Source: Escherichia coli (GTDB lineage Bacteria > Pseudomonadota > Gammaproteobacteria > Enterobacterales > Enterobacteriaceae). Taken from it: a DNA stretch of 19,819 nucleotides. The notes beneath the pieces are model-generated. The model saw only the letters and a program-made list of their open reading frames with translations, did not search any database and had not been told where the DNA came from. Position numbers and translations under genes: made by a program. Every line of letters starts with the position of its first letter. Position 1 is the first letter of the stretch. The stretch is taken from the NCBI RefSeq assembly GCF_003334315.1, contig NZ_QOWR01000071.1; one strand, given 5' to 3'. Shown piece after piece: positions 1 to 19,819 of this stretch.

Positions 1-149
1 GGTTGAGAAGCGGTGTAAGTGAACTGCAGTTGCCATGTTTTACGGCAGTGAGAGCAGAGATAGCGCTGATGTCCGGCGGTGCTTTTGCCGTTACGCACCA
101 CCCCGTCAGTAGCTGAACAGGAGGGACAGCTGATAGAAACAGAAGCCAC
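1..149 (-). CDS. insA: IS1 InsA, N-terminal part (partial CDS, runs off window start)
   Basis: GTG start at 149..147 (reverse complement of cac), followed by codons for [48 protein letters not shown] as recalled for InsA. Below the 60-aa track threshold because it is truncated by the window edge. Confidence 0.75.
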
Positions 150-204
150 TGGAGCACCTCAAAAACACCATCATACACTAAATCAGTAAGTTGGCATCAT
201 CACC
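1..204 (-). mobile_element. IS1 insertion sequence, partial (left inverted repeat and insA 5' region); element continues beyond window start
   Basis: Reverse complement of 181-204 reads ggtgatgatgccaacttactgatt, matching the IS1 terminal inverted repeat from memory (one A/C variant); the rest of 1-204 matches the IS1 insA 5' region as I recall it. IS end abuts the yjgL-like frame at 204/205. Confidence 0.85.
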
Positions 205-7857: not shown

Positions 7858-7889
7858 AAATGGGGCTTCTTGTGGTGGATTTAAATACG

Positions 7890-9725
<1,836 letters not shown>

Positions 9726-9988
9726 CTACGCTCCTGAATCTTAAAGACAACGGCGGTGGCTACAGATAGAATTGCAAGCTTTCGTAACTCATGTCCGCTG
9801 TTGCGATGACTTCGTGTTAATCTTAACGTTATTACGGCATTGGCACGTCAGAACAAAATCTGAGAGGTGAATCCGTTGAGTATAATTATCTTAGCGACGA
9901 TTTCGACGACTCAAGAGAATAAATGACGTTTAAGCCATGAAACAAGCTAAAATCCTGCAAAAGACGAGTTTTTACGGGCGTATTTAAA

Positions 9989-15136: not shown

Positions 15137-15221
15137 GCCGAAGTGGCGAAATCGGTAGACGCAGTTGATTCAAAATCAACCGTAGAAATACGTGCCGGTT
15201 CGAGTCCGGCCTTCGGCACCA
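15137..15221 (+). tRNA. leuX: tRNA-Leu (anticodon CAA)
   Basis: GCCGAAGTGGCGAAATCGGTAGACGCAGTTGATTCAAAATCAACCGTAGAAATACGTGCCGGTTCGAGTCCGGCCTTCGGCACCA: cloverleaf with long variable arm, anticodon loop TTCAAAA giving CAA, and 3' CCA. Confidence 0.95.
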
Positions 15222-15407: not shown

Positions 15408-16673
15408 ATGGCGTTAACAGATATCAAGGTCAGAACAGCCAAGCCAATGGATAAGCAGTACAAACTGACCGATGGCAGCGGTATGCACCTGCTTGTCCAT
15501 CCTAATGGTTCTAAGTACTGGCGTTTGCAGTACCGTTATGATGGCAAGCAAAAGATGTTGGCACTTGGGATTTACCCTGAAATAACACTGGCGGATGCCA
15601 GAGCACGTCGTGACGACGCGCGTAAGCTGCTAGCGAATGGCGTCGATCCGGGAGACAAAAAGAAAAATGATAAGGTTGAACAGAGTAAAGCACGAACCTT
15701 TAAAGAGGTCGCGATCGAGTGGCATGGCACCAATAAAAAGTGGTCTGAAGATCACGCCCATCGTGTGCTAAAAAGCTTGGAAGATAATCTCTTCGCGGCA
15801 CTTGGTGAGCGTAATATCGCTGAGCTAAAAACTCGTGATTTATTAGTACCCATTAAAGCCGTAGAGACATCTGGACGTCTTGAAGTGGCTTCCCGCCTTC
15901 AACAGCGCACCACGGCCATCATGCGTTATGCAGTGCAAAGCGGGTTAATTGATTACAATCCGGCGCAAGAGATGGCGGGGGCGGTTGCTTCCAGTAATCG
16001 ACAGCATCGTCCGGCGCTGGAGTTAAGGCGTATCCCTGAGTTGCTTGAGAAAATAGACAGCTATACCGGCAGGCCGTTAACCCGCTGGGCGACAGAACTC
16101 ACTCTGCTTATCTTTATTCGGTCCAGTGAGCTGCGTTTTGCTCGCTGGTCAGAAATCGATTTTGAAACGTCAATGTGGACTATCCCGCCCGAGCGAGAGC
16201 CTATTCCTGATGTGAAACATTCTCAGCGAGGATCAAAGATGCATACACCGCATCTGGTGCCGCTTTCAAAGCAGGCGCTGGCGATCCTGAAGCAGATAAA
16301 ACAGTTCTGTGGCGAACATGAGCTGATTTTTATTGGCGATCACGATCCGCGTAAGCCCATGAGCGAGAACACGGTAAACAGTGCGCTACGGGTGATGGGT
16401 TATGACACTAAGGTTGAAGTTTGCGGCCACGGCTTCCGTACAATGGCCTGTAGTTCGTTAATTGAGTCAGGACTATGGTCGAAGGATGCGGTGGAAAGGC
16501 AGATGAGCCATATGGAACGCAATTCGGTGAGGGCGGCGTATATCCATAAAGCGGAACATCTGGATGAGCGCAAGCTGATGTTGCGGTGGTGGGCGGATTT
16601 TCTGGATGCGAACCGGGAGAAAGGGATTACGCCGTTTGACTACGCGAAGATCAATCGGGGTAATGGCGAGTGA
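15408..16673 (+). CDS. P4-type tyrosine integrase (site-specific recombinase) at the leuX tRNA
   Basis: 421-aa ORF with strong SD (agggagggg) before the ATG; catalytic-domain signatures HGFR and RAAYIH (His-X-X-Arg ... Tyr); begins about 190 bp after the tRNA 3' end, the typical layout for P4-like integrative islands. Confidence 0.9.
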   Translation: MALTDIKVRTAKPMDKQYKLTDGSGMHLLVHPNGSKYWRLQYRYDGKQKMLALGIYPEITLADARARRDDARKLLANGVDPGDKKKNDKVEQSKARTFKEVAIEWHGTNKKWSEDHAHRVLKSLEDNLFAALGERNIAELKTRDLLVPIKAVETSGRLEVASRLQQRTTAIMRYAVQSGLIDYNPAQEMAGAVASSNRQHRPALELRRIPELLEKIDSYTGRPLTRWATELTLLIFIRSSELRFARWSEIDFETSMWTIPPEREPIPDVKHSQRGSKMHTPHLVPLSKQALAILKQIKQFCGEHELIFIGDHDPRKPMSENTVNSALRVMGYDTKVEVCGHGFRTMACSSLIESGLWSKDAVERQMSHMERNSVRAAYIHKAEHLDERKLMLRWWADFLDANREKGITPFDYAKINRGNGE

Positions 16674-16714
16674 GTTGAATGCCGTTATTCCTCGGCTGAT
16701 GTTTAAATTTAAAA

Positions 16715-16757
16715 GACCAACCAGCCCGCTTAGGACTGGTTGGTCGCTGTATTTTTT
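16715..16757 (+). terminator. Intrinsic terminator after the integrase gene
   Basis: Perfect 10-bp stem gaccaaccag / ctggttggtc (16715-16724 / 16736-16745) followed by a T-run at 16751-16757. Confidence 0.8.
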
Positions 16758-16877
16758 CAGAATTCCATCTGCCAGGTACAGAGCCGTCAGGCAAAATGGA
16801 TGTCTGCAATAATGCCTTGAATGTACATATAGTTGCGAGCATCATCGCAAATATGTGCTCATGGATTCTCCAACGCA

Positions 16878-17756
16878 ATGACCTCTGACAAAACCCTAAA
16901 ACAAGCGATATCAAATATCACCATCTGGCGCAAAGGCGAACAACGTGCGCCACATAAGCCATTATTGCTGCTGTACGTTCTCTCACACTATCGGCAGGGT
17001 CATGGTCGCATGTTTAACTATGGTTCTGAAATCTACGAGCCCCTGTTGGATCTCCTGGAACGTTATGGACCGCAGCGCCGTGACCAGCGCCCGGACATGC
17101 CGTTCTGGCGTCTGAAGGGCGATGGCTTCTGGGAACTACATAACGCGGAACTGTGCTCAACCAGTGGTAGCCGCCAGCCGCCCCGACGTGAACTCATTGA
17201 ATATAATGTCGCTGGTGGATTTGATGCCGATAATTTTGCGTTGGTGGCAAAAAATCACAGGTTAATTGATACGCTGGCTCAGCAGCTCCTGGAGGCGCAT
17301 TTCCCGGCCAGTATTCAGGAAGAGATCGCTGACGAGATGGGTTTTGATATTCGCACCTCTCTCCGTCAACGCGATCCGAAGTTTCGCCAGATGGTGCTAC
17401 GTGCTTACAATTATCAGTGCGCTATCTGCGGCTTTAACATGCGCCACGACAATGCGCCGATTGCTCTGGAAGCCGCTCATATCAGATGGAAGCAGCACCA
17501 TGGCCCTTGCGAAGTACCTAATGGCCTGGCATTGTGTGCAATCCACCATAAAGCGTTTGATCGCGGTTCGATTGGCCTGGATGAAAATATGCGTGTGGTG
17601 GTTTCCGGTGCGGTAAATGGTGGTGGAGTGGTACAGCGACTGTTCTGGGATTTTGCGGGAAAGGCGATTGCGTTGCCACCGGTTAAAGAAAATTATCCGG
17701 GCGAGCAGTTTGTTGAATGGCACAGAAAAGAGGTGTTCAGAGGAGAGGGAATCTGA
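16878..17756 (+). CDS. Two-domain protein: N-terminal uncharacterised (possible DNA-modification reader) domain fused to a C-terminal HNH nuclease; candidate type IV-like restriction or defence nuclease
   Basis: HNH motif readable directly in the C-terminus: YQCAICGF ... LEAAHIRW ... NGLALCAIHHKAFD. The N-terminal roughly 170 aa has no HNH features but distinctive motifs (PHKPLLLLYVL, MPFWRLKGDGFWEL). Start chosen at the first ATG (16878); the track ORF begins at a TTG at 16833. First cargo gene after the integrase. Confidence 0.6.
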   Translation: MTSDKTLKQAISNITIWRKGEQRAPHKPLLLLYVLSHYRQGHGRMFNYGSEIYEPLLDLLERYGPQRRDQRPDMPFWRLKGDGFWELHNAELCSTSGSRQPPRRELIEYNVAGGFDADNFALVAKNHRLIDTLAQQLLEAHFPASIQEEIADEMGFDIRTSLRQRDPKFRQMVLRAYNYQCAICGFNMRHDNAPIALEAAHIRWKQHHGPCEVPNGLALCAIHHKAFDRGSIGLDENMRVVVSGAVNGGGVVQRLFWDFAGKAIALPPVKENYPGEQFVEWHRKEVFRGEGI

Positions 17757-18146: not shown

Positions 18147-18447
18147 GTAAAATGCATGTCATTAATAAATGGTTAAATGTGGGTTTGTATAACTAATTCA
18201 TAGGTGTCATTCCAGTTTTATTAGTTAAATTTGTCGTTCTGCTGCTTCAATGTGCCGAAAATAATTTTTTGTTCTTAAATAAGTATTGGCTGATAAATTG
18301 TCTCTCCTTTAATAAAATTTGAAGTTGTTCACGGTTTATAGGGTTCTTCAATTATTAATGTTTTTTCTTTGTTAGCATCTTTCCTCAATGCTATGTATCT
18401 TTATAAAGATACGACCTAATCTTATTTGTCATTTTTAAAATCCTGTA

Positions 18448-18944
18448 TTATATTGTGAAGTATAATAAGCTAAGGAACGAGCCGAAAATAAAAACATGTC
18501 TAAATATTGCTAATCCAACCAGTTCATCAAGGCGACAGCCTTTCCATGATGCATTCCTCCAGCCTAGCTGAAACAATGTTGACCATGATAGAATAAATAT
18601 TCCGGTGGCGCTAACGGCGTCTTTCCATTCTAATGGATAGATAATCCGAAATTTCCCTGAGTAAAATCCAATCGCAATTACTATAAAAAGCACACCCAAC
18701 ATTATTAGCACTGACGCAAGAATGGACTTTCTTAAGTCATCACAATACTCTTCGAGGGAGTGTTTGTGATCATCTGGATTTAGACTGTATTTCCCCGCCT
18801 CAAGTTTTCTCTTATATTCATCCTTCTCAAGTTCAAAAGCCATCTTATTGATAGCACCAAGCGTAATAAATTTTTCCTTGTTGAAGAAAAAATAAAACAT
18901 TGCTTTATAAATATTTTCTTTTTTAGGTAGTTGTGCTGTGTTCA
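18448..18944 (-). CDS. Hypothetical membrane protein (about 165 aa; soluble charged N-terminal part plus 3 predicted TM helices)
   Basis: ORF on the minus strand with ATG at 18944 (MNTAQLPKKENIYKAMFYFFF); the track's longer version starts at a TTG at 18981. Predicted TM segments ILASVLIMLGVLFIVIAIGFY, GIFILSWSTLFQLGW and LVGLAIFRHVFIFGSFLSLLYF. No recognisable family from sequence alone. Confidence 0.4.
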
Positions 18945-18970
18945 TATTCTCATAAAAAATAAGTAACGAT

Positions 18971-18993
18971 GTTGACAGCAAGAAGCTGTCAAC
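18971..18993 (-). other. Perfect 9-bp stem hairpin between the hsdR-like remnant and the membrane-protein gene (possible terminator or leader structure)
   Basis: gttgacagc (18971-18979) / gctgtcaac (18985-18993) with a 5-nt loop, 8 nt 3' of the hsdR-like stop; the T-run lies 9 nt further on, so this is not a textbook intrinsic terminator. Confidence 0.4.
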
Positions 18994-19000
18994 ATGAAAT

Positions 19001-19366
19001 TCACATCGTCCAATGATTCGAAATAACTTCCGCTTGTTTCAAAATTAACTCCACCGCACCCGGCGTTTTATCTGGCGGATACTTATACCGACGCAGAGTC
19101 TGGCGAACCAAGATACGCAGCCTTGCACGAACGCTCTCGCGCACCTGCCAGTCAACGGTAGTTGATTGCCTCAACTTCAAGGTGACTTCTATCGCCAGTT
19201 TCTTAAGCACCTCATCCCCTAACTCTCGGACGGCACTTTCGTTTTCTGCCAGTGCGTCGTAGAAAGCGATTTCGTCAGGATTCAGGCCAAGCGCATCATC
19301 ACGCTCCATTGCAGACTGAAAATCCTTCGCCATCTGGATCAGCTCTTCAATCACCTGCGCCGTCTC
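19001..19366 (-). pseudogene. 3' remnant (about 122 codons) of a type I restriction enzyme R-subunit-like gene, truncated by IS1 insertion
   Basis: ORF ...LNPDEIAFYDALAENESAVRELGDEVLKKLAIEVTLKLRQSTTVDWQVRESVRARLRILVRQTLRRYKYPPDK... resembles the conserved HsdR C-terminal domain (DUF3387-like) as I recall it. The frame stays open upstream right to the IS1 boundary at 19366/19367, as expected for an insertion into a longer gene. Confidence 0.5.
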
Positions 19367-19819
19367 GGTAATGGTCCCAACTTATTGATAGTGTTTTATG
19401 TTCAGATAATGCCCGATTACTTTGTCATGCAGCTCCACCGATTTTGAGAACGACAGCGACTTCCGTCCCAGCCGTGCCAGGTGCTGCCTCAGATTCAGGT
19501 TATGCCGCTCAATTCGCTGCGTATATCGCTTGCTGATTACGTGCAGCTTTCCCTTCAGGCGGGATTCATACAGCGGCCAGCCATCCGTCATCCATATCAC
19601 CACGTCAAAGGGTGACAGCAGGCTCATAAGACGCCCCAGCGTCGCCATCGTGCGTTCACCGAATACGTGCGCAACAACCGTCTTCCGGAGCCTGTCATAC
19701 GCGTAAAACAGCCAGCGCTGGCGCGATTTAGCCCCGACATAGCCCCACTGTTCGTCCATTTCCGCGCAGACGATGACGTCACTGCCCGGCTGTATGCGCG
19801 AGGTTACCGACTGCGGCCT
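19367..19819 (-). mobile_element. IS1 insertion sequence, partial (right inverted repeat and insB); same orientation as the copy at 1-204; continues beyond window end
   Basis: 19367 onward reads ggtaatggtcccaacttattgatagtgttttatgttcagataatg, the reverse complement of the IS1 right end from memory (variant at 2-3 positions); the remainder to the window edge matches insB. Confidence 0.85.
19382..19819 (-). CDS. insB: IS1 InsB (transposase C-terminal part; partial CDS truncated by window end)
   Basis: Translation ...[125 protein letters not shown] matches IS1 InsB; the frame continues open to the window edge. Confidence 0.9.

Follow-up and report, generated by a model that had tools for sequence, protein, structure and literature searches.

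An IS1-truncated remnant of the type I restriction gene hsdR at the leuX island of Escherichia coli

The stretch of DNA analyzed here (the window) comprises 19,819 nt of Escherichia coli contig NZ_QOWR01000071.1. At its right-hand end, an IS1 end very probably transposed onto codons 924–926 of the type I hsdR gene of the leuX island, leaving a dead 121-codon 3' fragment. The fragment is the C-terminus of the restriction subunit HsdR, it ends exactly where IS1 begins, and the gene that it comes from closes an hsdM–hsdS–DUF4268–hsdR operon in relatives. Both the type of event, an IS1-truncated hsdR pseudogene in a defence island, and the system are already known.

The gene order of the window was argI–rraB–yjgM–yjgN–valS–holC–pepA–lptF–lptG–yjgR–ahr, followed by a tRNA-Leu gene, an integrase gene, an endonuclease gene, a gene for a 165-aa protein and the hsdR remnant (Table 1). 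The identical endonuclease product in relatives carries the Pfam domains DNA-SBD_ScoMcrA and HNH_2. No dnd or phosphorothioate (PT)-modification genes were found within the window. This type IV PT-dependent endonuclease survives in all relatives, even in those with the type I system destroyed. The hypothetical gene between the endonuclease and the remnant had no NCBIfam or PADLOC match, and the open reading frame (ORF) at this place spans 165–177 aa (18448–18981, minus strand). A private SNP of the window, 16643C, is synonymous and lies in the integrase gene.

Table 1. Coordinates of features at the two ends of the window and in the island
Feature	Position	Strand	Remarks
Second (left-hand) IS1, 204 nt from the IRL end	1..204	-	Same orientation as the right-hand copy; identical to the IS1B copy of PSS-13
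tRNA-Leu(CAA), island boundary	15137-15221	+	ARAGORN
Tyrosine integrase	15408-16673	+	Annotations, Pfam
PT-DNA-dependent restriction endonuclease (SBD + HNH), intact	16878..17756	+	NF045808, E = 1.1e-133, 445 bits vs cut-off 180
Hypothetical gene, conserved, 165 aa	18448..18945	-	Directly downstream of hsdR; annotated in AH65 and relatives
Hairpin, 11-bp stem	18969..18995	-	Just past the hsdR stop; terminator-like, poor T tail
hsdR remnant	19001..19366	-	Codons 924-1044 and stop of the gene for a type I restriction subunit (1044 aa)
IS1 target site, cgccgtctc	19358..19366		Would be one of the two 9-bp repeats in a simple insertion
IS1 right terminal inverted repeat (IRR), variant	19367..19389		GGTAATGGTCCCAACTTATTGAT vs GGTAATGACTCCAACTTATTGAT in IS1B; alignment, SNP list
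Partial (right-hand) IS1, IRR end, 453 nt out of about 768	19367..19819	-	3' part of insB, reading toward the remnant

The two IS1 copies are direct repeats that bracket 19.16 kb of chromosome (valS, holC, pepA, lptFG and leuX). The gene cut short by the left-hand copy has 1575 nt in strain PSS-13, where it is intact, and leaves a remnant ORF at 208–603. The junction of this IS1 copy was absent from complete E. coli genomes, and the 131-aa ORF that it creates was found in 6 short public contigs only, none extending to the right-hand junction. Four tandem 96-nt REP/BIME-like units lie between holC and pepA (7861–8246), where all complete relatives carry about 98 nt more, that is, one extra unit. 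The difference is either a real one in copy number or a collapse in a short-read assembly. The IS1 sequence at both ends, together with the shorter tandem repeat, suggests that the window represents a short-read contig with repeats at both ends.

The remnant frame runs on the minus strand from 19366 to a stop at 19001–19003, and translation gave 121 sense codons plus the stop. An earlier note, made from the letters of this DNA, had described a 122-codon frame ending at 19001 as an HsdR C-terminus that stays open up to an IS1 terminal repeat at 19367. Both its coordinates and its codon count were correct, and the identity of the frame was confirmed by a match to Pfam PF11867 (T1RH-like_C, the type I R-subunit C-terminal domain; E = 8.4e-48) and by 100% DNA identity to an intact hsdR. 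The same note had allowed that the remnant might turn out unlike HsdR C-termini; it does resemble them, although the match covers only part of the model (positions 212–328 of 329), just the final third of the C-terminal helical domain. PDB sequence and NCBIfam searches with the remnant returned no match. The longest ORF in it with an ATG or GTG start lies at 19001–19354 and encodes 117 aa.

The nuclease domain (HSDR_N, PD-(D/E)xK) and the SF2/SWI2-SNF2 ATP-dependent translocase motor were both absent from the window, the remnant frame stopping at IS1. The missing nuclease and motor indicated that the remnant is a fragment derived from the HsdR family and not a functional R subunit. As two thirds of the C-terminal domain are also gone, the remnant is a non-functional pseudogene, and restriction by this system is abolished. 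The inactivation of the restriction subunit had been proposed in the earlier note, and it holds: only residues 924–1044 are left, with IS1 adjoining at 19367. The remnant ORF is most simply regarded as recent neutral debris.

The uninterrupted gene was found in relatives. Megablast of positions 18400–19819 against 5426 complete E. coli genomes showed that 18400–19366 is 100% identical in AH65, AH62 and FACU 2024. In AH65, hsdR is uninterrupted (3135 nt) and encodes 1044 aa; the product, WP_089079036.1, is shared by AH65 and FACU 2024. Its domains are HSDR_N (1–209), SWI2_SNF2/ResIII (267–526), T1R_D3 (domain 3, 623–694) and T1RH-like_C (712–1040), and PADLOC called it a full-length REase_I. 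The uninterrupted allele reads ...CGCCGTCTCAATAGCCCGG... at the target site, and at the point where the window changes to IS1 it passes from CGCCGTCTC to AATAGCCCGG. A longer hsdR therefore once existed here, as the earlier note had supposed, given an intact 1044-aa orthologue identical over the shared 366 nt.

In relatives, hsdR is the last gene of the operon hsdM (568 aa)–hsdS–DUF4268–hsdR, which lies on the minus strand of a leuX-integrated defence island. Genes for TIR, WYL and GTPase proteins lie beyond it. The placement of a type I restriction–modification system in this tRNA-Leu island, also suggested in the note, thus agrees with the position of the orthologous operon in relatives. The complete operon, including hsdM (568 aa) and hsdS (459 aa), was found in strain bR_120 and in draft genomes with an identical HsdR; hsdM was intact in three of these draft genomes, and hsdS as well in two (L022 and L025). 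The DUF4268 gene between hsdS and hsdR belongs to the PADLOC candidate defence family PDC-S11 (E = 9e-178; 15752–16945 in relatives L018 and L001). It is also an IS1 target in at least three relatives.

In every match, homology to the uninterrupted hsdR ended exactly at 19366, and the IRR of IS1 started at 19367. The exact stop indicated a genuine IS1 terminus at this boundary, as opposed to a chance likeness. The imperfect terminal inverted repeat of about 23 bp beginning GGTRATG was present at 19367–19389, and the IRL of the other copy lay at 182–204. An IS1 transposase (InsB/DDE_Tnp_IS1) was encoded next to the IRR. Its C-terminal part matched NCBIfam NF033558 (transpos_IS1) with E = 1e-40 over profile positions 82–199 of 199, the rest lying past the window end. 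A complete IS1 has about 768 bp, with insA, a –1 frameshift site and both ends. Many E. coli genomes have IS1 copies with 99.8% identity to the 453-nt part in the window, which carried four substitutions in its first 52 nt, three of them inside the IRR. The 9 bp before this part, given as cgccgtctc in the earlier note, were confirmed. The insB stop (TAA, 19382–19384) is in the frame of the remnant, with five IRR-encoded codons (VGTIT) between, and the translation reads ...NIKHYQ-stop-VGTITETAQVIEEL.

Many strains, E. coli C among them, have a fixed IS1 copy at about 1.15 Mb with the same variant IRR end. That copy (within NZ_CP020543.1, 1151305–1153157, in E. coli C) has 735 nt with a 33-nt internal deletion, and its flanks carry no matching 9 bp. 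It sits 30 nt downstream of another type I hsdR, whose identity to the hsdR of the leuX island is about 77%. An origin of the right-hand IS1 from the 1.15-Mb copy, by recombination between the two hsdR paralogues, was rejected because the hsdR genes have opposite orientations relative to IS1 and the IS1 body of the window is IS1B-like after 52 nt.

Lesions of the operon were then compared among close relatives, defined by at least 99.8% identity over the island. Among the complete genomes, every close relative inspected had a broken system. In AH65, hsdM is truncated. In FACU 2024, IS1 lies in DUF4268 and is directly followed by a fimD fragment; in 2017.17.03CC, IS1 in DUF4268 is followed by distal island genes, and OZ249091 has a similar IS1 lesion. 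The whole operon was lost beside IS1 in PSS-13, where IS1 is followed by fimB, and in the RCAD0514 group. One metagenome contig carried IS1 in hsdM. All five IS1 copies with a readable far side at this locus bordered a deletion in which either hsdS/hsdM or the entire operon was lost, and none was a simple insertion. Taken together, hsdM/hsdS were absent or truncated in AH65, FACU 2024, 2017.17.03CC, 13C1065T, cM2a, PSS-13 and RCAD0514.

Other lesions had no IS. 13C1065T, L6-21 and 8 draft contigs share a 6.6-kb deletion that joins hsdR to the WYL gene at about 6 bp of microhomology, and cM2a has another, distinct non-IS deletion of the operon. The IS1 lesions lie in hsdR (the window), in DUF4268 (at least two) and in hsdM, and deletions without an IS number at least three. 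The hsdR breakpoint of the 6.6-kb deletion (13C1065T, 9967–9985) is only 12–13 bp from the IS1 site of the window. Two independent breakpoints this close together in a 3.1-kb hsdR are an unexplained coincidence; they could mark a local fragile site or a target hotspot. At SNP 9793, the window has G, like AH65 and FACU 2024, and all deletion-allele genomes covering the position have A. Derivation of the 13C1065T allele from the window allele by loss of IS1 was rejected, because 12 nt beyond the IS1 site are kept and SNP 9793 differs.

In the mechanism that we propose, transposition joined the IS1 end to codons 924–926 of the promoter-distal gene of the hsdM–hsdS–DUF4268–hsdR operon, in an IS1-rich E. 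coli lineage that had the operon on a leuX (tRNA-Leu) integrative island. Type I enzymes restrict DNA only when HsdR is bound to the M2S1 methyltransferase. According to the title of Grinkevich et al. 2018, as cited in PMC11411939, the C-terminal domain of EcoR124 HsdR is involved in complex assembly. From these two points, the remnant would not be expected to restrict, and nor would a putative N-terminal fragment of 926 aa.

On the pattern of IS1 with an adjoining deletion in relatives, the upstream part of the system (the 5' part of hsdR, hsdS and hsdM) was probably lost or displaced by an IS1-mediated adjacent deletion or rearrangement, and we hold this with moderate confidence. The alternative, a simple insertion of IS1 flanked by a 9-bp duplication, would leave 926 codons of the hsdR 5' part, DUF4268, hsdS and hsdM intact just beyond the element and give the restriction-minus, modification-plus (r-m+) state proposed in the earlier note. 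We consider it possible, with odds clearly against it. Since hsdR is promoter-distal in the order M–S–DUF4268–R, such an insertion would be non-polar and would leave the expression of hsdM and hsdS untouched. The genomes L022 and L025 combine an identical HsdR with complete hsdM/hsdS, which means that a full system may have been present in the immediate ancestor, and SNP 9793, a single informative SNP, places the window with the non-deleted alleles. An r-m+ state through an hsdR lesion is also well known: hsdR17 is a stop at codon 363 with hsdM and hsdS active (PMC11148124). Yet no relative carried a simple IS1 insertion, and all five IS1 cases with a readable far side carried a deletion. A simple insertion predicts an N-terminal product of 926 aa plus GDAANLLI or GDDANLLI, by read-through into either IRL variant, and a junction of IRL, 9-bp duplication and hsdR that reads ...AAGTTGGCA(G/T)CATCACC and continues as CGCCGTCTCAATAGCCCGGTTG. 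Neither predicted 934-aa truncated product was on record in an exact look-up among 153 billion gene positions; these negatives are weak because one SNP, another start-codon call or a duplication of other than 9 bp defeats exact matching. The hsdR/IS1 junction of the window was spanned by no record in the megablast search of 5426 complete E. coli genomes, and its exact pattern had no match in GTDB representative genomes or in JGI metagenomes. A literature search for IS1 in hsdR gave no specific precedent at the leuX-island locus. Judged from relatives, the r-m+ state would be more likely wrong than right; given a simple insertion, it would be mechanistically reasonable.

The order of events might also have been different, with hsdR truncated first by a deletion of the 13C1065T type (codon ~930 fused to a truncated WYL gene) and IS1 landing 12 bp away later. 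The deletion allele is common: the 117-aa remnant ORF occurred in 142 listed blocks, and each of the 8 contigs examined had the IS-free microhomology deletion and not the window junction. Its breakpoint is also just 12–13 bp from the IS1 site. However, the deletion alleles that cover position 9793 have A there and the window has G like AH65 and FACU 2024, though this is one SNP only, and a deletion-first order needs a chance landing of IS1 in a 12-bp interval. We regard this order as unlikely. Far less probable still is an expressed remnant, transcribed by read-through from IS1 and translated either from the GTG at 19354 or past the insB stop, in which the C-terminal HsdR domain would act as a decoy for a type I methyltransferase. 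The in-frame insB stop only five codons away and the assembly role named in the title of the EcoR124 paper (as cited in PMC11411939) could be cited for it, but the in-frame arrangement has a 1-in-3 chance, the remnant is only the last third of the domain, and the junction has no promoter-like site or convincing ribosome-binding site. In addition, the remnant ORF is equally kept in the IS1-free deletion alleles, as expected for recent neutral debris. It is just as improbable that the hsdR/IS1 junction is an assembly artefact, a chimeric contig end at a repeat. Both window ends do lie inside IS1, and the 96-nt tandem repeat is one unit short compared with all complete relatives. Against this, the sequence switches precisely where the IS1 terminal repeat begins, and the four SNPs of the IS1 variant fall no more than 52 nt from the junction, close enough for one read to cover both; this is the pattern left by a real transposition. 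Transposition of an IS1 end into hsdR, probably with loss or displacement of the upstream genes, is the reading that we prefer.

In annotation, the hsdR fragment should be labelled a pseudogene, and the type I system should not be counted as a source of restriction in the strain. The case has little import beyond strain annotation and represents ordinary IS-driven decay of a restriction–modification system. With many independent breakages in an IS1-rich lineage, one could ask whether restriction is lost in step with IS expansion and the acquisition of genes. That the repeated loss of the operon in this IS1-expanded lineage (from poultry, humans and sewage) reflects selection against restriction, and not neutral decay, seems to us rather improbable; if true, the selected loss of restriction would open the lineage to foreign DNA.

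Compared with the intact orthologue WP_089079036.1, the window has the same last 366 nt and the same C-terminal domain family, and the island context (leuX, the integrase, the PT-dependent HNH endonuclease and the 165-aa hypothetical gene) is common to both. A difference is that the window retains residues 924–1044 only, whereas the nuclease, the motor and most of the C-terminal domain are gone. The closest type I R subunits are those with a HindI-like C-terminal domain (PF11867), and the solved EcoR124I HsdR structure is distant from the intact orthologue (E about 1e-29, residues 104–488 only). The right-hand IS1 is IS1/IS1B-like in its terminal repeat, insB coding sequence and orientation logic, though incomplete in the window, and its positions 53 to 453 are identical to the IS1B copy of PSS-13. 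Like the hsdR17 strains DH1, JM109 and XL1-Blue (PMC11148124), the window has a lesion in hsdR that could leave a methyltransferase active. The hsdR17 lesion, however, is a nonsense mutation in strains whose hsdM/hsdS are known to be intact; that of the window is an IS1 junction, and comparison with relatives makes the presence of hsdM/hsdS doubtful. The nearest parallels are the IS1 deletions of the sister strains FACU 2024, 2017.17.03CC, PSS-13 and RCAD0514, which share with the window the island, the IS family, the lineage and a disabled type I system. The breakpoints and IS1 variants differ, which marks these events as independent.
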